This document shows positions 6,919-63,307 of a stretch of 64,000 bases of DNA, piece by piece (the stretch's first letter is position 1; each line of letters starts with the position of its first letter). The DNA is from an uncultured Candidatus Berkelbacteria bacterium (lineage in GTDB: Bacteria; Patescibacteriota; UBA1384; UBA12157; JAENIV01). The stretch lies in assembly GCA_963698075.1 (NCBI GenBank), contig OY969116.1, positions 189,492-253,491 on the forward strand. Direction: 5' to 3'. The notes beneath the pieces are model-generated. The model saw only the letters and a list, made by a program, of their open reading frames with translations, was not told the origin of the DNA and did not search any database. Both the position numbers and the translations under genes were made by a program.

Positions 6919-6995
6919 TAAACAACGCGCCAAGGAAGAAGCGCCGAAAAGACGTGCCGCCGAAGAAAAAAGTAATAAGAAAAAGAGGAGTCGAA

Positions 6996-10551: not shown

Positions 10552-11978
10552 TTTTTCTTGTCAATCTTAAGATGAAGCTCTTTTAATTGTTTTTGGTCAT
10601 CAACTTCGGCCGGAGCTTTCATCATTAAATCGCGGCCATCGCCGGTTTTCGGAAAGGCAATTGTCTCACGAATTGAATCCTCGCCGGCCAAAATCATTAC
10701 CAAACGATCCAGGCCCCAGGCAATCCCGCCATGAGGCGGCACACCATATTCAAAAGCTTTGAGTAAGTGGCCAAAACGTTCCTGAATTTCTTTTTTGTTG
10801 TAGCCTAAAACTTCAAAGACCTTTTCTAATATCTTGGGGGCGTGACTGCGAATACTGCCACCACCGAGTTCTTGGCCATTTAAAATCAAGTCGTATTGGG
10901 TAGTCCGGATGGACTCAATCTCGCCTTTGAGAAACTTTTTTTTATCTTTCTTAACCGGATCAGAAAACGGATTATGAGTGAAGGTCCAATTAGCTTCGTT
11001 ATTTTTCTCAAAAAACGGAAAATCAATCACCCAGCAGAAAGCCAATTCGTCGGCATCCTTTTTATTGCGGCGTAAATCTGGTCGATCGGTATGATATTTT
11101 TTTTGAACTTCATCGAAACTGAGTACCGGAAATAGTTCTTCGGTAAGTTTTTTGTTGGGCGTAATTTTTTTAACAATCGCCTTGCCAAGTTTTTCATTAA
11201 TTTCCATGACGTCTTTTTGTTCGGCAAAACTCATCTCCAAATCAAGTTGGGTATGCTCGGGTTGGCGATCACCGCGCGGATCTTCATCGCGAAAACAACG
11301 GGCAATCTGAAAATATTTTTCCACTCCGGCAATCATGAGGAGTTGCTTAAATTGTTGTGGCGACTGCGGCAGAGCATAAAACTTTCCCGGCTGCTGACGC
11401 GAGGGCACTAAATAATCGCGGGCGCCTTCAGGAGTCGATTTAGTCAAATTAGGGGTCTCAATTTCCCAAAAACCTTCTCTATCGAGCCAGTCGCGAATAA
11501 ATTTGATCGTTTTGTACCTGAGTTCAAGGATCTTTTGCATCCGTTCGGTTCTAAGATCCAAATAGCGGTATTCCATCCGTAAATCTTCGGCAATTTTTTT
11601 GGTATCGGTCGTCAAATCAAAAGGTGGCGTGTTGGCTTCGGCTAAGATCTCGAGATTTTCTGCCTCAACCTCAACTTTTCCGGTGGCAATTTTTGAGTTG
11701 TCCATGCCCTCCGGCCGCTTTTTAACTGTACCAGATATCGCCACGACATATTCAGGCCGTAATTTATCGGCTTTCTCATGCAATTCTCCCGAAAGAACCA
11801 CTTGGACTAAACCAGAACGATCTCTTAAATCAATAAAAATCAGTTTGCCGTGATCACGGCGGGCATGAACCCAGCCGGCCAAATTGACCTTCTCGCCGAC
11901 CATTTCAGCTGTTTGAATATTTGCTACTTTCATAAATCCCTTCTTCTTTAAGATAACATAACTTTCCACAGTTGACAA
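10548..11978 (-). CDS. aspS: aspartyl-tRNA synthetase (short form lacking the GAD insertion)
   Basis: Class II aaRS motifs FRDEDPRGDRQPE, QLDLEMSF and GGGSIR...GLDRLVM. N-terminal OB fold. Probable true start at internal MKVAN (about 11933). Confidence 0.85.
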   Translation of the reverse strand: MSTVESYVILKKKGFMKVANIQTAEMVGEKVNLAGWVHARRDHGKLIFIDLRDRSGLVQVVLSGELHEKADKLRPEYVVAISGTVKKRPEGMDNSKIATGKVEVEAENLEILAEANTPPFDLTTDTKKIAEDLRMEYRYLDLRTERMQKILELRYKTIKFIRDWLDREGFWEIETPNLTKSTPEGARDYLVPSRQQPGKFYALPQSPQQFKQLLMIAGVEKYFQIARCFRDEDPRGDRQPEHTQLDLEMSFAEQKDVMEINEKLGKAIVKKITPNKKLTEELFPVLSFDEVQKKYHTDRPDLRRNKKDADELAFCWVIDFPFFEKNNEANWTFTHNPFSDPVKKDKKKFLKGEIESIRTTQYDLILNGQELGGGSIRSHAPKILEKVFEVLGYNKKEIQERFGHLLKAFEYGVPPHGGIAWGLDRLVMILAGEDSIRETIAFPKTGDGRDLMMKAPAEVDDQKQLKELHLKIDKKK

Positions 11979-12000
11979 TTAAAAATTTTGATGATAAGAT
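11972..12000 (+). promoter_or_regulatory. sigma70-like promoter (TTGACA-17-TAAGAT) for the GC-rich ORF at 12072
   Basis: Hexamers with 17-nt spacing. Followed by a GC-rich leader hairpin CCCTCG-GGC-GAGGG and the RBS ACAGGAG. Confidence 0.4.
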
Positions 12001-12071
12001 AAAAATTCGCTAAGGATCTCCCTCGGGCGAGGGGTTCTTTGGCAGAAACTATCACAGGAGACAGTAACAGC

Positions 12072-12329
12072 ATGAAGCATCGCAAAAGCCCGGTGCAAAG
12101 ACTTGAGGAGTTCATTCTGACAAATCGTGGCACAACTGGGACACCAAGGCTCTTCGCCTTGGCTACCGGCCTCGAAGTCGAGGTCGTCGATGCGGTCCTC
12201 CAGACCATCGAGAACCGCGTCGTGATCCAATTGCGCCCAGGCATCTGGGGTTACAACCCCGCTTACCGCCACGAGCGTCAACCTGTTCCGGCAGCCGAAC
12301 TCAACGCGGTTGCAACCGTATCCACCTGA
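12072..12329 (+). CDS. small GC-rich hypothetical protein (about 85 aa)
   Basis: ATG 10 nt after ACAGGAG. About 60 percent GC, unlike the flanking aspS and pheT. No recognisable motif. Confidence 0.3.
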   Translation: MKHRKSPVQRLEEFILTNRGTTGTPRLFALATGLEVEVVDAVLQTIENRVVIQLRPGIWGYNPAYRHERQPVPAAELNAVATVST

Positions 12330-12383
12330 ACCTGAGTACCGTCCCCCTGCCACCCGGCTGGGGGACATCTGTTTATTTATAGA

Positions 12384-21866: not shown

Positions 21867-21894
21867 TTGCACGATCTTAATTTATCGCTATAAT
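21867..21894 (+). promoter_or_regulatory. sigma70-like promoter (TTGCAC-16-TATAAT)
   Basis: Hexamers upstream of an RBS GGGAGAGATG-like sequence. Confidence 0.4.
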
Positions 21895-21932
21895 CTATTT
21901 GTTGGACTGAAGAAGAACGGGAGAGATGACCG

Positions 21933-22373
21933 ATGGACGAGATTCACCAGTTTTACGCCGTCACCATCAGCGGCTCTCTTTATCTGGTAAGCGATAGACC
22001 TGACACCGAATCTCACGTTCCGATCGTCGAGAAAATCGTCATGATTGGCAGCAGTCGGCTTCCGGCCGGGACCAGACTAACCGGCGGCTCATTGGTTGGG
22101 ATTACCCCCGAGGGAATCCAGATGTTCAATCCGGATAAGCACAACCGCACCGCCTATACTGTTTCTACCAACTATTGGGGAGGCGGCTCTTCCCCAATCG
22201 TCGCCCTGTTCCGAGATGAGAGTGAAGCGAGGGAGTGCCTGGGCTCGTCCGACCTGAAGGCTTGGGACCCGAGGTGGCAAATGGCAACCAACCTTGTCCT
22301 CCAACTGATTGGTAGCGAGCATCCCATTTTCCGTCCTGAGCCACAACTCCTCGAGTCCACTCAATCAAGATAG
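21933..22373 (+). CDS. GC-rich hypothetical protein (146 aa)
   Basis: ORF after the promoter and RBS. GC-rich and foreign-looking relative to flanking infA and map. Confidence 0.5.
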   Translation: MDEIHQFYAVTISGSLYLVSDRPDTESHVPIVEKIVMIGSSRLPAGTRLTGGSLVGITPEGIQMFNPDKHNRTAYTVSTNYWGGGSSPIVALFRDESEARECLGSSDLKAWDPRWQMATNLVLQLIGSEHPIFRPEPQLLESTQSR

Positions 22374-22494
22374 ACTACATTCCATTCGTTGAGGGTAAGG
22401 CCTGTGCTTACCCTCTTTTCATTAATACCCCTTTGACAGAAAAATAATATTCAGATATGTTTAAAGCGATCTTGCCTAAGGAGGTGAGCGTACC

Positions 22495-46483: not shown

Positions 46484-47671
46484 TTACTTTACTATCTTTG
46501 TTACTACTCCTGCTCCAACGGTTTTACCCCCTTCACGAATGGCAAACCGCATTCCTTCTTCCATGGCCACTGGCTGGAGCAATTTGACTTTGAATTTAAT
46601 CGTGTCCCCTGGCATGACCATTTCCGTGTCCGCTGGCAGTTCAACTTCGCCGGTAACGTCAGTTGTCCGAATATAAAATTGGGGCTTATAACCTTTAAAG
46701 AACGGCGTGTGACGTCCACCTTCCTCTTTGGTTAAGACGTAAACTTCTGATTCGAATTCGGTGTGTGGGGTAATCGACCCAGGTTTGGCTAAAACTTGGC
46801 CGCGCTCAACATCTTCTCGCTCGACACCACGAAGTAAGGCGCCGATGTTATCGCCGGCAATTCCTTCATCAAGCTGCTTTTTAAACATCTCGACGCCGGT
46901 AACAACCACTTTTTTAGTCGGTTTGAGACCCACAATTTCTACTTCTTCATTAACTTTAACTTTACCGCGTTCGATTCGACCGGTAGCCACCGTGCCCCGT
47001 CCTTTAATCGAGAAAACGTCTTCGACCGCCATCAAGAAGGGTTTTTCCACATCCCGTTTTGGTTCAGGGACGAATTCATCAAGAGCCTTGAGTAATTCTT
47101 CAATTGATTTTTCCCCTTCGGCGTCGCCTTCAAGGGCTTTGAGAGCCGAGCCTTTTATAATCGGGGTCTCATCGCCGGGAAATTCATATTTTTTCAAGAG
47201 ATCGCGAACTTCCATTTCAACTAATTCCAAAAGTTCTTTATCGGTCACTTGATCAACCTTATTTAGATAAACCACAATTGACGGCACTCCCACCTGACGG
47301 GCTAACAGGATATGCTCGCGAGTTTGCGGCATTGGACCGTCAGCAGCCGAGACCACCAAAATCGCTCCATCCATCTGCGCCGCTCCGGTGATCATATTTT
47401 TGACATAGTCAGCGTGACCCGGGCAGTCAACGTGAGCATAATGACGTTTATCGGTTTCGTACTCAACATGACAAGTAGCAATCGTGATCCCGCGTTCTTT
47501 TTCTTCTGGAGCATTGTCAATTTGATCAACTGTCCGCGGCTCGGCCAAGCCTTTTTTGGACTGAATTTTCAAAATCGCCGCGGTTAACGTTGTTTTGCCG
47601 TGGTCAACATGACCAATGGTTCCCACATTAACATGGGGTTTCTTGCGTTCAAATTTTTTGGTCTCTGCCAT
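46484..47671 (-). CDS. tuf: elongation factor Tu
   Basis: [18 protein letters not shown] and NKVD G-domain motifs; 395 aa, intact. Confidence 0.95.
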
Positions 47672-47851: not shown

Positions 47852-48343
47852 CTACGGTTTTCTGGTTATTTCGATGATCATTTCCTGCCTAGCATCGAAG
47901 ATGACGATGGGCTCGTTGAAACCTTCATCGACAACACCAATTGTTTCCCCTAAAAGGACGATTTCGAATACCCCAGGAAGGATCTCACCTTGGAAGTGAC
48001 CGTTGGTATCTGCGTAGAGGTTTTCAGAATTGGCATCTCTGTCGCGGTGTCTGAAAACAATCGTCACATTAGGAACGGGCCGACCGTTTGATTCCCTGAC
48101 AATTCCCTCGACCATACGTGAACCCGGGCCTCTGGGTCTAAAGCCGTTTCCTCTAACCGATATCATCGACTTGACATAATGACCATGCACGTCCCTCAAA
48201 GCAGGTTGCCCAGGCGTAGTCGGAAGCTGCGTCAATCCAATCCAAACCAGGCATACACCCATAAAAGACATCAGGAAAGCCATCAGCCAATCCTCCTGTC
48301 GTCCAGATGGAAATATCGTACCTGAAAATATAAATAAAGTCAA
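47852..48343 (-). CDS. GC-rich exported protein with a carboxypeptidase-regulatory-like (CarbopepD_reg) beta-sandwich motif
   Basis: Signal peptide MAFLMSFMGVCLVWIG; GRPVPNVTIVF...ADTNGHFQGEILPG matches the CarbopepD_reg pattern. Promoter TTGACT-17-TACGAT and RBS AGGAGGA upstream. Confidence 0.45.
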   Translation of the reverse strand: MTLFIFSGTIFPSGRQEDWLMAFLMSFMGVCLVWIGLTQLPTTPGQPALRDVHGHYVKSMISVRGNGFRPRGPGSRMVEGIVRESNGRPVPNVTIVFRHRDRDANSENLYADTNGHFQGEILPGVFEIVLLGETIGVVDEGFNEPIVIFDARQEMIIEITRKP

Positions 48344-48371: not shown

Positions 48372-49265
48372 TTACGACTTTTTGACTAACGCCAAATAGG
48401 TCAAGGTTAAAACCGTTGAATAAAAGGTGTTAAAAATACCAGCAACAATCACCAGTGCCGCCAAGAAAATCAAACCAATCGTGACGCCATAAATAATGCT
48501 AACTAAAGGACTGGCTAAAAACATCCCAAAACCGATAGCCAATAAAATCCCGCCAACAATCAAGATGGCCAGCATATAGGCAATACCAAAGCCAAGACTT
48601 ATGGCAAATAAAAGTAAATACATCACCACCACTTCTTTCCAAAAATCGCGAAAGAAATGTAAAGAGCCGCGGATACTTTCCCAGATCCCATCATCTTTTA
48701 AAACTACCATCCGTAAAGAATAGGGCAAAATTAGGCCAACCAGAATCCAAAAAGCGATCGAGACAAACAAGAGCAATATCCCCCAGATTAGAGCCAAGAC
48801 CCACTGACCAAAAACAAACAAAAAGATCGAGGGCCCAAGCAAGACTACCAAAGAAGCCAAAACCATTAAGGTATAAAGAACCAACACTCCTAAAATTCGC
48901 CAAAAATGATGGCTGCCGATCTTAAAACCATCGCCGAAATTACTTTTTTTACCCCCAGCAATCTTGTCAACTGAACCGATTAATCCCCCTTGGCTGATGA
49001 TATTGAGGATAAATAAAATGATTGCCAACCCAGCACAAATTAGCAAACAAGTAATTATCAGGCCGCCCCAGATTTGCCAAAAACTGGCAAAACTTGAATA
49101 TGGCAATTTGTTGGTCCAATCCGAGCTATTGGTCGTATAATTGCCAAAATTGGAATTGAGACCTCGAAAACCACCGTACCCACCGGCTAAAATCCCAAAA
49201 ATCCAGAGGAATTTGTGCTTAATGCTAATTTCGTAAGCTCTTTTGATAATGCCTAAATAGTCCAT
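48372..49265 (-). CDS. hypothetical polytopic membrane protein (297 aa)
   Basis: About 7 TM segments; AT-rich native composition. Confidence 0.5.
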   Translation of the reverse strand: MDYLGIIKRAYEISIKHKFLWIFGILAGGYGGFRGLNSNFGNYTTNSSDWTNKLPYSSFASFWQIWGGLIITCLLICAGLAIILFILNIISQGGLIGSVDKIAGGKKSNFGDGFKIGSHHFWRILGVLVLYTLMVLASLVVLLGPSIFLFVFGQWVLALIWGILLLFVSIAFWILVGLILPYSLRMVVLKDDGIWESIRGSLHFFRDFWKEVVVMYLLLFAISLGFGIAYMLAILIVGGILLAIGFGMFLASPLVSIIYGVTIGLIFLAALVIVAGIFNTFYSTVLTLTYLALVKKS

Positions 49266-49297
49266 AATTTCACCTCAACTCTAATATAGCACAAATT

Positions 49298-49326
49298 CTT
49301 GACATTTTCATCACTTTATGGTATAA
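49298..49326 (+). promoter_or_regulatory. consensus sigma70 promoter with extended -10 (TTGACA-17-TGGTATAAT)
   Basis: Exact hexamers plus TGn. Nearly identical to the promoter at 53766. Confidence 0.55.
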
Positions 49327-49335
49327 TCTCGGGTT

Positions 49336-49503
49336 ATGAATATCATCCTTGTTTTAATTTTAATGTTTTTTGCCAGCGCCTTGACGAGTTTTCTTATCTC
49401 CTGCGCTTGCTTAAGTTTGGCCACCAAAATCAGGGCTAATTTGTGGATTTTAATGATGATTGTCGGCATATTCATCCTTAGTTGGATAAGGTTGGCGATT
49501 TAA
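49336..49503 (+). CDS. possible small membrane protein (55 aa)
   Basis: MNIILVLILMFFASALTSFLISCACLSLATKIRANLWILMMIVGIFILSWIRLAI*; alternatively part of a long 5' UTR. Confidence 0.25.
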   Translation: MNIILVLILMFFASALTSFLISCACLSLATKIRANLWILMMIVGIFILSWIRLAI

Positions 49504-49509
49504 AAATCT

Positions 49510-49574
49510 CCTGAAGGGAAAATTGGTGGCGCGATATGACCGCCAGCAGTTTCTCCTTCGGGAGCTTACCAGGC
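49510..49574 (+). ncRNA. conserved structured leader element E1 (candidate cis-regulatory RNA)
   Basis: CCUGAAGGGAAAAUUGGUGG-[hairpin UGGCG..CGCCA]-CAGUUUCUCCUUCGGGAG, shared with E2. The outer helix CUGAAGG/CCUUCGG competes with a local CUCC-UUCG-GGAG tetraloop hairpin. Confidence 0.45.
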
Positions 49575-49630
49575 AGGCTTTACCTAGTAAGGCACGCTTG
49601 GAAGAGAAGCACAAGAGGAGGCAGGCTTCC

Positions 49631-50170
49631 ATGTCGGAGGCAAGCTTCGGTGAGCAGTCAAGTTGGGAAGATGTCGGTCGTCTTCTGACACAACTGGGGG
49701 CGTTCTTCAGGAAGGCCGCGCGTAGACTCGATTCAGAGTTCCTCCAAGCCTTCACTGACTTCACTCCCTTTAGGGAGGCAGTCGCTGCGACCTATCGGAA
49801 ATGGGCACTACGACTGGTGCAGGAAGCCTTCGGTGTCTGGGTCCTGGAGAGCAGGTGGGCCCAACTCAGGGTATACGACCAACGCAAAACCCCCACTCAT
49901 GTCATGGAGGCCATGAGGGCGCTCGAGAGGATGGTCAAAGACGGCCGCGAGGGGCCCAAGCTTCACGTCCAAGATCATCATTTCACAACTCGAAGCTGCA
50001 GCACCAACATCGTCCAGGTGCTCTTCGCGAATAATCGCGTGCTCTATGTCAGATTCGGAGAGCGTGGAGACGTCTACTGGGATATCTACGGCGCAGCCGT
50101 CTGCCCCATCACCGGTGATGGACCATGTGAGCTCGAAGACATGGTCGCGGCCGTCAAACGCCTCTTCTGA
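49631..50170 (+). CDS. GC-rich hypothetical protein (179 aa)
   Basis: ATG after RBS AAGAGGAGG; no recognisable motif. Confidence 0.5.
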   Translation: MSEASFGEQSSWEDVGRLLTQLGAFFRKAARRLDSEFLQAFTDFTPFREAVAATYRKWALRLVQEAFGVWVLESRWAQLRVYDQRKTPTHVMEAMRALERMVKDGREGPKLHVQDHHFTTRSCSTNIVQVLFANNRVLYVRFGERGDVYWDIYGAAVCPITGDGPCELEDMVAAVKRLF

Positions 50171-50186
50171 CCCTATCTCGAACCCA

Positions 50187-50220
50187 AGACCGCCGGAGCG
50201 GTTAATTGCGCCGGCGGTCT
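50187..50220 (+). terminator. GC hairpin after gene 49631..50170
   Basis: AGACCGCCGG-(14 nt)-CCGGCGGTCT, a 10-bp stem. Confidence 0.45.
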
Positions 50221-50252
50221 CTCATATCTAGAGAGCTTTCTATACCATGGAT

Positions 50253-50281
50253 TGACAAAGGAACAGCTTTATGCTACACTC
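50253..50281 (+). promoter_or_regulatory. sigma70-like promoter (TTGACA-17-TACACT)
   Basis: Hexamers upstream of E2 and the gene at 50438. Confidence 0.4.
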
Positions 50282-50327
50282 AAGGAGTTTTGAAGCTGAA
50301 GAATAGTCCGCCAGTCGGCGGATTTCC

Positions 50328-50391
50328 CCTGAAGGGAAAATTGGTGGTGATATCATTATTGGATTATCGCCGGCAGTTTCTCCTTCGGGAG
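50328..50391 (+). ncRNA. conserved structured leader element E2 (paralog of E1)
   Basis: Same outer helix and UUCG hairpin as E1. The inner hairpin differs in sequence but preserves pairing (GGUGAUA...UAUCGCC versus UGGCG...CGCCA), a compensatory change. Confidence 0.45.
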
Positions 50392-50437
50392 ACGGGTGTA
50401 TCCCGGAAACAACACCGCTTAACAATTGAGGGATAAC

Positions 50438-51028
50438 ATGCGAGCCTTCGTACGGGGCACACTCTGGACATTGCTGGTGTTGGGCGCCATCGTGGCGGCC
50501 TTCTACGCCAGCATCAAGTACCTAGATGGCGCCTGCTGTCTGGGACTGGAACTCCTGATGGTATTGATCGCTTCTCTGGTCCTCGGCATCGTCCCGGCGG
50601 CGGTCATCGATCTGTTCTTCGCGAAGATCGTCAGGCGCCCCAGGTGGGGAGCAATCGGATTCTACACCGTACTCGGTGCCGTTTTCATCTTCATCCTGGT
50701 ACCGCAGCTCGGTATGACCCACAAGTTGGTACCCTTGGCGCGCAACTTCCACCAAGCGTGCCAGGCCGATCACCGGGAATACCAGTCGGATGACCCCGAG
50801 GTAGTCGTGGCTGATTTCGGCGGCTCGCTGGACAACATCACGTTCGAACGTGACGACGTCCTGCGGGCCGACCAGTATCTCGGCCTCGGCGGGTGGCACT
50901 ACAAGAATAGTAGCGCTACAGTCGGGATGCTGTACCTCTACACCTACCTCCCCAAGACGACTTTCGATCGGTGGTTCCCCGACCCTTACCGGCCGGCGGA
51001 ATCCCAAGAAGCAAAGGGGCGTGGCTGA
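50438..51028 (+). CDS. GC-rich membrane protein (2-3 TM plus soluble C-terminal domain)
   Basis: MRAFVRGTLWTLLVLGAIVAAFY...; RBS GAGGGA. Confidence 0.5.
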   Translation: MRAFVRGTLWTLLVLGAIVAAFYASIKYLDGACCLGLELLMVLIASLVLGIVPAAVIDLFFAKIVRRPRWGAIGFYTVLGAVFIFILVPQLGMTHKLVPLARNFHQACQADHREYQSDDPEVVVADFGGSLDNITFERDDVLRADQYLGLGGWHYKNSSATVGMLYLYTYLPKTTFDRWFPDPYRPAESQEAKGRG

Positions 51029-51111
51029 CGCCACGCCCCGACGTACCCTTCTTACGGAAAAAGTGACTGCGAAATATCGTCGTTACTTTCTCCGCAAAAG
51101 AAGTCTTATAC

Positions 51112-51140
51112 AAAAAAACCGCCCAAAGAGCGGTCTTTTT
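51112..51140. terminator. bidirectional rho-independent terminator (also ends fusA)
   Basis: AAAAAAA-CCGC-CCAAAGA-GCGG-TCTTTTTCTTT. Confidence 0.6.
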
Positions 51141-51163
51141 CTTTATTATTTTCGTTTTTTACC

Positions 51164-53263
51164 TTATTTTTGTTTCCCCTCAATAATCTTTTGCGCTATA
51201 TGACGAGGCACTTCGGCGTAGTGGGAAAATTCCATAGTGAAGCTTGCCCGGCCTTGGGACATACTCCGTAAAGAAGTGGCGTAGCCAAACATTTCCGCCA
51301 AAGGCACTTCGCCGTCAATCACCTTCATTTTCGCTCGATCCGACATTTCTTTAATATGAGTTCTCTTAGAATTTAAATCCCCCAAAACATCACCCATAAA
51401 ATCTTCTGGCACGACGACTTCAATCCGCATAATTGGCTCCAATAAAACCGGATTGGCTTTTTTAACTCCGGCCTGCAAAGCAAGTGAGCCGGCAATTTGG
51501 AAGGCAATTTCCGAAGAATCAACTTCGTGAAAAGAGCCGTCGTACAAAGTTGTTGACATATCCACCAACGGATAGCCGGCAATCACGCCTCGGGTCATTG
51601 CTTCTTTAATCCCCTTTTCCACTGCCGGAATAAATTCTTTAGGAATTGTGCCGCCGACAATTTTATCGATAAATTCAAAACCTTTGCCGCGTTCCATTGG
51701 GTTTAATTCTAACCAAACATGGCCGTATTGACCGCGGCCGCCTGTTTGACGGATATATTTACCTTCAGCTTTAATACCGAGCGCTTTGATCGTTTCTTTG
51801 TAAGCAACTTGCGGGGCGCCGACATTGGCCTCAACTTTAAATTCCCGTTTCATCCGGTCAACAATAATTTCCAAATGTAGCTCGCCCATGCCGGAAATAA
51901 TTGTCTGACCGGTTTCCGGATCGCCTTTGACCCGAAAGGTCGGATCTTCTTGAGCTAAGCGATTTAAAGCAATGCCCATTTTTTCCTGATCCTGCTTGGT
52001 TTTTGGTTCAATCGCCACACCAATTACGGGCTCTGGGAAAGTAATTGCCTCCAAAATTATTGGCGATTTTTCGTCACATAAAGTATCGCCGGTAGTAGTA
52101 TCTTTTAGGCCCACAGCCGCGGCAATTTCGCCGGCAAAAACTTCGCTGACTTCTTCGCGATGTTGAGCATGCATTCTGACAATTCGGCCGATGCGTTCTT
52201 TTTTGTCTTTAGAAGAATTAAGGACATATGTGCCGGCTTTTAACATCCCAGAATAAACTCTAAAAAAAGTTAAAGTCCCAACAAATGGATCAGCAGCGAC
52301 TTTAAAAGCCAAAGCGGCGAATGGTTCGGCGTCATCGGGCGATCTTTCGAGTTCTTCTTCGGTTCTTGGCTTCCAGCCCTTGACTGGGGGAATATCGAGC
52401 GGTGAAGGCAAATATTCAACCACTGCATCCAAAACCTGCTGCACGCCTTTGTTTTTTAGGGCTGACCCACAGAAAACTGGTACTAATTTATTGGCAATGG
52501 TGGCATTTCGAGAACTTTTTTTAATTCTTCATAGGTCGGTTTTTGACCTTCTAAATATTTATGGAGTAACTCATCATCTTGCTCGGCGATTTTTTCGACT
52601 AAAATTTGATGGAGTTTTTCCGCTTTTTCTTTGAAGCTCCGCCGGGATTTCGAGTTCTTTAACATCTTGACCTTTATCGCCATGGAATTCATAAGCTTTC
52701 ATTTTCAAAACATCGATCACTTGCGAAAATTTTTCTTCATGGGCGTTGGGGAATTGGATGGCAACGGCGTTGTCAGTTAAACGTTCTTTAATTGAATCAA
52801 ATGACTTATTAAAATCTGCGCCCATGCGGTCAAGTTTATTAATAAAACAAATCCGTGGCACCCCGAATTTATCCGCCTGATGCCAAACCGTTTCCGATTG
52901 CGGCTCAACCCCGGCAACGCCGTCAAAAACCACGATCGCGCCATCAAGAACGCGCAAAGAGCGCTGGACTTCGGCGGTAAAATCAATGTGACCGGGAGTA
53001 TCGATAATATTAAAGCGAATTTTTTCTCGAGGATTATCACGGCTGGCCCAAAAACAAGTGGTGGCGGCTGAAGTAATCGTAATTCCCCGCTCGCGCTCCT
53101 GGGCCATCCAGTCCATCACGGCCGCCCCTTCGTGAACTTCGCCGATTTTATAGGTTTTGCCGGTATAAAACAGAACCCGCTCGGTCATCGTCGTCTTCCC
53201 AGCGTCGATATGGGCAATGATGCCAAAATTACGGGTTTTTTCAAGTGAATATTCTCGTGCCAT
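51164..53263 (-). pseudogene. fusA: elongation factor G fusA, two frameshifts (near 52650 and 52455)
   Basis: N-terminal [17 protein letters not shown] and NKLDR. Middle [29 protein letters not shown]. Then [36 protein letters not shown] continues to the C-terminus in other frames. A one-nucleotide deletion (CC to C) lies at about 52455. Confidence 0.85.
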
Positions 53264-53765: not shown

Positions 53766-53794
53766 TTGACTTTTACCATAAAATATGGTATAAT
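53766..53794 (+). promoter_or_regulatory. consensus sigma70 promoter with extended -10 (TTGACT-17-TGGTATAAT)
   Basis: Near-duplicate of the promoter at 49298. Followed by a GC-rich 5' leader of about 110 nt. Confidence 0.5.
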
Positions 53795-53905
53795 CCTTAT
53801 GTCAGAGCATCGCTCGGGTATAACCTGTAGCCTGCTCGGCTAACCCACTCACCGATCAATGGCCCTATGGGGACCGGAGACGGAAAGAAGAAAGGGAGAA
53901 GTGAG

Positions 53906-54379
53906 ATGTCTAGCATTCGAGTCGTCGGACCCGACGGACGTCCTGTTTCTGAAGAGCAGTACCCCATGGATGGACCAGCCCCAAAGTTGGAAAATGGGCA
54001 GAGTTTCTCGCTCTTCGAGATCCTCTCGAACCCAATCTTCATCAATGGAACGCCACTGGAACACATCCACGGAACGGCCCGAGCAACGCTGTATCCCCGG
54101 AACACTGCCGTCTGTAAGGATCGAGTGCGCTATTTCGAGCTCAGCATCCGGTCGCGGAGCTGGGACGATATGATCGCGCTCTTCCACGAAGTCCGTAGGC
54201 TCGTCTACAGCTATGAGCCGCTAATACACAAGCCGGCGCCGCCCGCACCGCCGAAGCCGGAGGATCCGTCCTTCATGGGCGGCATCAAGTGGCTGATCCG
54301 CGGAATCTGGTATGATGTCTGCCGCGTCTGGCTCTACTGCGGCCACATCTTGGACCGAGCCTACGAAGACGGCGTGTAG
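53906..54379 (+). CDS. GC-rich hypothetical protein (157 aa)
   Basis: MSSIRVVGPDGRPV... after RBS AAGGGAG. Confidence 0.5.
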   Translation: MSSIRVVGPDGRPVSEEQYPMDGPAPKLENGQSFSLFEILSNPIFINGTPLEHIHGTARATLYPRNTAVCKDRVRYFELSIRSRSWDDMIALFHEVRRLVYSYEPLIHKPAPPAPPKPEDPSFMGGIKWLIRGIWYDVCRVWLYCGHILDRAYEDGV

Positions 54380-54403
54380 AGTAGTCAACCGACCGCTTCA
54401 CTG

Positions 54404-54427
54404 GGGCGCCCTCTTCCGAGGGCGCCC
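54404..54427 (+). terminator. GC hairpin terminator after 53906..54379
   Basis: GGGCGCCCTC-TTCC-GAGGGCGCCC, a 10-bp stem with T-rich sequence downstream. Confidence 0.55.
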
Positions 54428-54518
54428 TTCTCATATCTGAAATACTTTTTTTATTACCAGAAAAGATTCCGTCAGGAATCTTTCTTCATAATCTTATGAG
54501 ATTTTCCAATTTTAAAAA

Positions 54519-62905: not shown

Positions 62906-63307
62906 CTATTCGGTCGTTTTGCCGTCAAATTCCGGCGAGCTCTCTTCGGCTTCTTCTTTAGTGGCGCGGACCACGCCGTCTTGGTGGTGAGCCGGCGAAT
63001 AAATGGTGTAGAGCTTGAGACCTTCGGTCTCAGAAATATTGATAACATTGTGATTGGCGCCAGCCGGCACGACCACGGCTACGCCATCTTTAAGATCATA
63101 GACGTTTCCGTCAATCACACACTGGCCTTGCCCTTTTTCAAAGCGGAAAAATTGATCGTTACTGGGGTGGACTTCCATGCCAATTTCTTCTTTGGGCTTT
63201 AAACTCATCAGCACCAACTGACTGTGCTTGGCGGTATAGAGAACCTGGCGAAAATTTTCATTGACCAAGGTCTCTTTTTCAATGTTGGTGGTAAATCCTT
63301 TCATCAT
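62906..63307 (-). CDS. cupin-domain protein
   Basis: Cupin_2-like HPSNDQFFRFEKGQGQCVIDGNVYDLKDGVAVVVPAGANHNVIN. Confidence 0.6.
   Translation of the reverse strand: MMKGFTTNIEKETLVNENFRQVLYTAKHSQLVLMSLKPKEEIGMEVHPSNDQFFRFEKGQGQCVIDGNVYDLKDGVAVVVPAGANHNVINISETEGLKLYTIYSPAHHQDGVVRATKEEAEESSPEFDGKTTE

Follow-up and report, generated by a model that had tools for sequence, protein, structure and literature searches.

In leaders that work by translational attenuation or by sequestration of the Shine–Dalgarno (SD) sequence, such as those of the ermC and cat type, an upstream open reading frame (ORF) ends at the foot of a hairpin, and a pyrimidine-rich strand resembling the anti-SD sequence has two options, namely pairing with an upstream purine strand or with the downstream ribosome-binding region; this two-partner strand is the most conserved one. 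Here, we describe a hairpin, called E, that resembles these leaders in all three respects, its downstream pairing being a predicted one, and is found in the 5′ leaders of two adjacent gene modules of an uncultured Candidatus Berkelbacteria bacterium, a member of the Candidate Phyla Radiation (CPR). The DNA analysed (hereafter, the window) is a 64-kb stretch of this 929-kb genome, and the scans for E on its own genome covered these 64 kb. E departs from ermC- and cat-type leaders in that its upstream ORF encodes a conserved 55-aa membrane protein instead of a short stalling peptide and is missing from half of the modules, in that the SD sequence of the gene downstream (the cargo gene) lies 40–110 nt away and outside the hairpin, and in that its alternative pairing is no better than that of shuffled leaders.

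E is also comparable to the orphan RNA motifs of the Weinberg/Breaker type collected in Rfam, with which it shares the form of a short conserved hairpin in a 5′ untranslated region (UTR) and a narrow phylogenetic range; unlike these motifs, it falls outside the 4227 families of Rfam 15 and is bound to a single slot of the chromosome, in which the cargo is hypervariable. A literature search found no description of it, and E is a real, undescribed and lineage-restricted leader element. To our knowledge, almost no cis-regulatory RNAs have been characterised in the CPR, and E is a well-delimited, testable structured leader motif from this group. It is tied to small orphan genes that are rich in G and C at the third codon position (GC3), have their own near-consensus promoter and terminator, lie antisense in the str/ribosomal-protein region and are swapped between close relatives; an understanding of the hairpin could reveal by what means genomes this small switch on recently gained genes or keep them in check. 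At present, it is a narrow, lineage-specific element with a role that we infer.

The E hairpin and its copies

The genes tuf (46484–47671) and fusA (51164–53263) both occupy the minus strand, and the E modules lie between them on the plus strand. A first-pass annotation, made from the letters alone, had described two modules with a shared element at this place; that layout stands, and a third, degenerate copy of the element is added to it here. E1 (49508–49564, plus strand; −34.0 kcal/mol, z = −3.6; 79.5 bits) precedes gene A, and E2 (50325–50392, plus strand; −33.5 kcal/mol, z = −4.3; 74.7 bits) precedes gene B. In each of these imperfect hairpins, a variable apex joins a purine-rich 5′ arm to a pyrimidine-rich 3′ arm, the apex of E2 being longer and different in sequence. 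The earlier claim of a shared conserved sequence was well founded: with up to three mismatches allowed, the 20-mer CCTGAAGGGAAAATTGGTGG occurs in the window only at 49510 and 50328 (chance expectation 0.00) and the 18-mer CAGTTTCTCCTTCGGGAG only at 49547 and 50374 (chance expectation 0.06), both arms being exact in E1 and E2, and the two leaders do not align beyond the element. The inner stems differ in sequence yet remain paired, again as had been read. The shape proposed earlier needs revision: a hairpin is indeed present in each leader, but each copy is one continuous hairpin spanning the coordinates given above. Its helix comprises 22–28 imperfect base pairs (18–30 predicted pairs per copy), with single-nucleotide mismatches whose positions shift among copies. 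E is followed by GCUUACC or ACGGGUG, with no T-run, and is absent from the terminator scan listing; with no U-run behind the hairpin, a role for E as an intrinsic terminator was ruled out. A conserved peptide was likewise rejected, as the reading frame through E is shared with the downstream ATG in E1, stops 1 nt short of it in E2, and is shifted against it in the copies L1a and L124 described below.

The recurrence of the element elsewhere was confirmed by way of three sets of related contigs, namely L001, a Logan contig reached through the sole homologue of gene B; L124 and L125, found by a stricter pattern scan of Joint Genome Institute (JGI) metagenomes (the tuf gene of L124 is ~96% identical); and L126–L139, the contigs of homologues of a DUF7544 gene that neighbours the modules. 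The names given to these homologues assign the organism to Candidatus Berkelbacteria. A covariance model built from four E copies was searched in the window and the related contigs, and returned seven further copies in six related contigs: two in L001 (L1a and L1b) and one each in L124, L125, L126, L128 and L130, the L128 copy being identical in L129. Altogether, seven contigs carry ten copies, each of which runs in the same direction as the gene behind it and, in the DNA examined, lies at the fusA 3′ end. Across the 64-kb window and ~80 kb of related loci, no copy was found away from this locus. The third copy of the window, E3 (51048–51103, plus strand; 24.4 bits, E = 5e-5), follows gene B, has no gene after it and keeps the block UUUCUCC; it is most similar to L1b, and it suggests the trace of a lost third module.

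Several other matches were discarded. A covariance-model match at 63134–63203 (17.7 bits) lies within a cupin-like gene and was taken as chance. A loose-pattern scan of genome contigs gave at least 120 chance matches, and among the matches listed the covariance model retains only one (L023), which was judged to be chance as well, lying within long ORFs of a GC-rich Chthoniobacterales contig. Viral scans returned one match per arm, in coding regions and judged to be chance, and a blastn search of phage and plasmid collections gave no match.

The position of E relative to its neighbours takes one of two forms. In E1, L1a, L126 and L130, the hairpin begins 0–4 nt after the stop codon of a small ORF (sORF), and in E2, L1b, L124, L125 and L128, it stands ~25–45 nt after its own sigma-70-type promoter. 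In the window, the sORF (49336–49503, plus strand) encodes a conserved 55-aa hydrophobic protein with two helices, and its stop codon lies 4 nt ahead of the base of E1. This frame, first noted as a possible membrane sORF, is a real conserved gene with homologues in seven contigs (L001, L124, L126, L128, L130, L137 and L139). Its family is tiny, with only one other cluster at 50% identity among 1.84 billion representatives; the gene is oriented divergently from DUF7544 and is kept across Berkelbacteria relatives, even in L137 and L139, which have neither E nor cargo. It is preceded by promoter P1 (49299–49327, plus strand), a TTGACA-17-TATAAT sequence with 12 of 12 consensus positions and an extended −10 TG in the promoter scan, and a P1-like promoter also lies ahead of the sORF in L001, L124, L126, L130 and L137. 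Promoter P2 (50252–50280, plus strand; TTGACA-17-TACACT, 10/12, extended −10 TG) opens the second form of the unit, P2-leader-E2 (50249–50391). Both promoters had been claimed in the first-pass annotation and are verified here.

The L001 contig repeats this arrangement. A DUF7544-like gene is followed by a consensus promoter, a homologue of the 55-aa sORF, an E-like hairpin, the gene B homologue and a terminator; behind these, another promoter and another E-like hairpin lead to one more GC-rich ORF. In blastn comparisons of the window with its relatives, homology spans DUF7544, P1, the sORF and E, ends 0–27 nt past E, and restarts exactly at the fusA stop codon (51164). The ~140-nt P2-leader-E2 unit is ~72% identical to L124 7004–7130 and L125 748–860, where it stands before unrelated genes, and the terminator of gene A (50178–50232) is 89% identical to L136 4507–4562, where it stands behind an unrelated 111-aa GC-rich ORFan (an orphan ORF) of a more distant relative. 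Because these leader and terminator units match units around unrelated cargo, conserved regulatory frames outlive the genes that are replaced within them. More distant relatives have the slot without the hairpin (the sORF alone in L137 and L139; a promoter and an ORFan, with neither sORF nor E, in L133 and L136), and E is thus an add-on of one Berkelbacteria subclade.

The compensatory base changes proposed for E are present, with pairing maintained and seven pairs changed on both sides. In the ten-copy alignment, 86% of the cells are standard pairs, as against 81.5% in column shuffles (0 of 500 reach the observed value) and 42–52% in slid controls, and double-sided changes at seven pairs are matched by one of 500 shuffles. 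The apex is rebuilt with different sequences and varies in length, being as short as 4 nt and, in L126, holding an insert of 43 nt. The plus strand folds 8–14 kcal/mol better than the minus strand in six of the ten copies, owing to G-U pairs, with three copies approximately equal and one worse; this preference favours a function in the transcript. As the copies are few and close relatives of one another, the structural support for E is no more than moderate.

The two arms of the helix are not equally conserved. Over 162 positions each, 5 differences fall in the 3′ arm, CAGUUUCUCCUUCGGGAG, and 23 in the 5′ arm (Fisher p = 5e-4, without phylogenetic correction). The 5′ arm has mostly undergone G-to-A changes, giving A.C or U.C mismatches at shifting positions, and C-to-U changes are absent from the 3′ arm, though G-U pairing would survive them. 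The 3′ arm is thus constrained in sequence beyond pairing, a pattern that a segment with a second partner would be expected to show. The core of this arm, CUCCUU, resembles an anti-SD sequence, and the decayed E3 keeps UUUCUCC as its sole conserved block. The conservation of E as a whole sits in this 3′ strand of the basal stem, and there are no conserved unpaired nucleotides.

Possible action of the 3′ arm

On this evidence, E is probably a functional cis-acting leader RNA. As we read it, E would be a structured RNA in the 5′ leader of plug-in expression modules, and these modules would fill a hypervariable slot that extends from fusA to DUF7544-tuf in one subclade of Candidatus Berkelbacteria. 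The native unit would be either sORF-E or P2-leader-E (~140 nt), to which foreign-looking GC3-rich ORFans are presumably joined 0–27 nt past the hairpin. We infer that E acts as RNA, most likely after transcription and by way of its invariant 3′ arm with the anti-SD-like core. By default, the SD-like purine-rich 5′ arm would hold the 3′ arm, leaving the ribosome-binding region of the cargo gene free. The hairpin might be opened by a ribosome that terminates at the sORF stop codon (in four genomes, 0–4 nt from the hairpin base); a trans-acting factor or a nuclease might also open it. Once freed, the 3′ arm could bind the purine-rich stretch and SD sequence before the cargo gene, resulting in less translation.

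Folding predictions are consistent with such a release-and-repair model, which is plausible. When the 5′ arm (first 20 nt) is kept from pairing, as it would be by a terminating ribosome, UUUCUCC binds the SD region in the minimum-free-energy fold of five of nine modules, and when four leaders lacking the 5′ arm are folded jointly with RNAalifold, the 3′ arm pairs in all four with a downstream purine-rich stretch similar to the 5′ arm; in L125, this stretch resembles the 5′ arm in ~19 of 22 nt (counted by eye). We nonetheless advance release and sequestration by the 3′ arm only tentatively and regard it as rather unlikely in this particular form. The explanation as a whole—a cis-acting leader RNA in plug-in modules that acts through its 3′ arm—is the one that we favour, with reservations that leave it closer to doubt than to conviction.

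Those reservations have several sources. The covariation comes from only ten closely related copies. The duplexes between the 3′ arm and the downstream leader are no better than those of dinucleotide shuffles (mean z = −0.28, best p = 0.09), and any SD sequence pairs with CUCC. The hairpin amounts to −20 to −36 kcal/mol in most copies, and so stable a structure would form co-transcriptionally. Since E2, L1b, L124, L125 and L128 have no upstream ORF that ends at the hairpin, another opener is needed in these five modules. The entire 18–19-nt 3′ arm is invariant, not merely its SD-complementary core, and a common trans-acting partner therefore fits better than variable cis partners. Lastly, distant Berkelbacteria use the same slot without E, which makes it dispensable for the capture and expression of cargo.

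Alternative explanations

Two explanations at the RNA level are serious rivals to a leader that controls translation through its 3′ arm. E could be a double-stranded RNA signal of the RNase III type for processing or stability, cleavage of which would separate the sORF and cargo messenger RNAs or trim the leader and so set the half-life or translatability of the cargo transcript. The hairpins of phage T7 early R sites and of the lambda N leader resemble E in consisting of about two or more turns of imperfect duplex, placed between cistrons or in a 5′ UTR, with a dispensable apex and no U-tract; a duplex of at least ~20 bp of largely helical RNA is found in E as well (18–30 predicted pairs), as are single mismatches, a freely variable apex that tolerates the 43-nt insert of L126, a site that is directly behind the sORF in four genomes and within the 5′ UTR elsewhere, and the lack of a T-run, which excludes a terminator. 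The mismatch positions move between copies, however, and the one-sided invariance of the 3′ arm, which RNase III sites do not show, is left unexplained; we judge processing of this kind to be fairly unlikely. The same invariance is what speaks for an operator of which the 3′ arm or basal helix is bound by a dedicated factor acting in trans, either an RNA-binding protein or a small RNA, by which all captured genes bearing the leader would be jointly repressed or activated: the full 18–19 nt are invariant across genomes and paralogous copies while cis partners vary, the basal helix is conserved with a free apex, and the same leader stands before unrelated genes. Such an operator is improbable, since no candidate regulator came up, no complement of the 3′ arm exists elsewhere in the 64-kb window, and one to three copies per locus would make a small regulon at most. 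A metabolite- or ion-sensing riboswitch, the architecture suggested in the first-pass annotation, has almost no likelihood. E is conserved, structured and located in 5′ leaders, and a local CUCC-UUCG-GGAG hairpin does overlap its 3′ arm; this hairpin, which had been read as mutually exclusive with the long helix, contributes no more than −4.1 kcal/mol, is lacking from L1a and E3, and costs 12.7 kcal/mol (E1) or 6.7 kcal/mol (E2) to force. Because its formation is disfavoured by 7–13 kcal/mol, an equilibrium switch through the UUCG hairpin is not expected. E has no conserved pocket, unpaired nucleotides or multi-helix junction and its apex is free; as to an expression platform, it contains no terminator and the SD sequence lies outside it; and the downstream ORFans are unrelated, with no transport or metabolic theme. 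When the whole window was scanned against Rfam 15 at the gathering score, only a transfer RNA was found, and the related loci gave nothing; a cmscan of 49250–51200 at E ≤ 10, a check that had been proposed for the element, returned no riboswitch, and only sub-threshold matches to microRNA precursors (32 and 31 bits; the gathering score is 72), which signify merely a long hairpin. The resemblance to the fluoride riboswitch (crcB motif, RF01734) that had been pointed out, both being small and combining a GC hairpin with a UUCGG-containing segment, does not extend further, as E has no crcB covariance-model match at E ≤ 10, no evidence of a pseudoknot and no fluoride-related genes downstream.

The remaining explanations place the function of E, if any, at the level of DNA. 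If E were a site of recombination or a homology anchor in the exchange of cassettes, forming the fixed end of an insertion slot, this would account for the variable DNA that reaches from 0–27 nt past E to the conserved terminator or fusA, for the unrelated GC3-rich ORFans found there, and for the presence of three E copies for two cargo genes in the window, as flanking sites would be. Integron attC and attI sites come to mind because they, too, border unrelated ORFans of foreign composition, lined up as cassettes in an array-like slot near a promoter, and the basal stems and variable terminal structure of the imperfect hairpin recall attC. The attC core sites (R″/R′ motifs RYYYAAC and GTTRRRY) are nevertheless absent on both strands, the 3′ arm reading CAGTTTCTCC, with GTT followed by TCT and not RRR. 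Unlike attC, which lies downstream of its gene, E lies upstream, behind a promoter or sORF; in five of the six related contigs, a single E accompanies a single cargo gene and a second site is lacking; the junctions are staggered instead of precise; related genomes swap cargo in the same slot without E; and the G-U pairs favour the transcribed strand and thus point to RNA. No integrase or transposase is present among the called genes within ~5 kb in L131, L133, L136 and L137, the window proteins not having been scanned one by one. Taken together, these findings make a recombination site very improbable. Even less probable is a selfish palindromic repeat, such as a miniature inverted-repeat transposable element or a repetitive extragenic palindromic (REP)-like element, or else a neutral relic of local duplication. 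E is an imperfect palindrome with several copies within 1.6 kb, one of which is decaying, but its orientation and position relative to the gene start are constant at one locus in seven contigs, its arms are 100% identical between genomes of which the DUF7544 proteins are 61–81% identical, and there is neither a further copy in the window nor a match in phage or plasmid collections. The related idea, raised beforehand as a way in which the RNA reading might fail, that the shared segment is the terminal repeat of an insertion element does not agree with copies that are direct, each upstream of one cargo gene, and confined to a single locus with no transposase among the called genes. More speculatively, and with little probability, the promoter-hairpin unit might serve a Berkelbacteria lineage as the stationary end of a slot that captures foreign GC-rich orphans, where these would dock, be expressed and come under joint control. 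Such a system would be integron-like, or would exert xenogeneic control at the RNA level, without a known integrase, with the 3′ arm as the handle for a dedicated recombinase or regulator.

Cargo genes and neighbouring features

Genes A and B exist at the positions claimed in the first-pass annotation, and neither has a known family match. Gene A (49631–50170, plus strand) is a 179-aa ORFan with a GC content of 0.57 (0.62/0.44/0.67 at codon positions 1/2/3) and no homologue among 5.8 billion proteins. Gene B (50438–51028, plus strand) is a 196-aa membrane ORFan (GC 0.60; GC3 0.77) with a single homologue in the same set, at 54% identity, which stands behind an E copy in L001. Gene B is clearly coding and under purifying selection: its differences from this homologue distribute as 58/28/83 by codon position, and of the 83 residues that are identical, 40 are encoded by other codons. 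A 170-aa antisense ORF (50522–51034, minus strand) overlaps almost all of gene B, as is expected in GC-rich DNA, and codon-position statistics favour the plus-strand frame over it. AlphaFold models of the two proteins (predicted local distance difference test scores of 39 for gene A and 51 for gene B) were too poor for a fold search.

Across the E modules, the cargo gene starts 41–109 nt downstream of E and is a different, mostly unrelated ORFan each time, as emerged when the genes preceded by E elsewhere were checked. Related pairs are limited to gene B with its L001 homologue, which is clear, and L001-C with the L130 cargo, which is weak. No cargo gene matched a family in Pfam, PHROGs or PADLOC. 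All called cargo frames but one have the profile GC1 > GC2 < GC3, with GC3 of 0.54–0.78 compared with 0.42 for long ORFs of the window; the exception, in L126, is probably called in the wrong frame.

The leaders and ends of the two modules contain further structures. In module 1, a second leader hairpin, H2 (49565–49605, plus strand), follows E1; its purine-rich 3′ strand is similar to the 5′ arm of E, and it is partly kept in L125, L126 and L130. In module 2, folding predicts a small 5′-proximal leader hairpin, UCCGCCAGUCGGCGGA (50307–50322, plus strand). A leader peptide upstream of the P2-type copies was considered and rejected, as it is not conserved. The terminator region of gene A (50178–50235, plus strand) consists of a GC hairpin (50186–50221) and then a small hairpin with a T-run (50219–50235). 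For module 2, a bidirectional terminator had been proposed; one is present in the terminator scan at 51118–51134, common to the fusA 3′ end and serving as the plus-strand terminator, but the hairpin directly after gene B (51016–51039) has its T-run on the minus strand.

The description of the modules as interrupting the str operon is correct as to their location between tuf and fusA, but two further genes sit there too. One is the DUF7544 membrane-protein gene (48372–49265), between fusA and tuf; the other (47852–48343, minus strand), between tuf and DUF7544, encodes 163 aa with a weak CarboxypepD_reg-like match. The position of the latter is empty in L124 and holds larger SLH/CarboxypepD_reg genes in L135 and L136, and it appears from these comparisons to be a second variable spot of the fusA-tuf region. 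In the window, fusA is split into three ORFs (52574–53263, 52483–52692 and 51164–52444) by two frameshifts at ~52440–52700, and it is intact in the relatives L124, L126 and L130 (699–731 aa); the frameshifts are probably indel errors of long-read assembly, a pseudogene being possible.

Two other elements were observed in the relatives. An insert of ~110 nt, conserved between the DUF7544 start and P1 in L124 (6530–6660) and L133 (5890–6010; minus-strand reading) and absent from the window, is closed by GTCCACC...GGTGGAC and looks structured, with no Rfam match at the gathering score. A palindromic repeat, ATACCACAAAATGCGCTCCAGCG...TGGTAT, is intergenic and occurs three times in L139 (~830–870, 1150–1190 and 1830–1870) and once each in L124 (~6940–6975) and L125 (~915–940); it is not present in the window, and from its sequence it looks like a terminator or REP-like element.

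Small GC-rich genes with their own signals also occur in the window without E. Three complete stand-alone modules (11972–12370, 21869–22420 and 53766–54440, all on the plus strand) each place a small GC-rich ORF (GC3 0.64–0.71, compared with 0.42) between a sigma-70-like promoter with a structured leader and a GC hairpin terminator. A fourth, likewise lacking E, begins at ~63865 on the plus strand with a promoter and a GC-rich leader and leaves the window at its end (64000) before any ORF or terminator. The module at 53766–54440 lies just upstream of a PLDc_N gene, apparently between PLDc_N and rpsG, and is antisense to the str region; in L131, the gap between rpsG and PLDc_N is only ~250 nt. 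The genome thus seems to be peppered with foreign-looking orphan genes.

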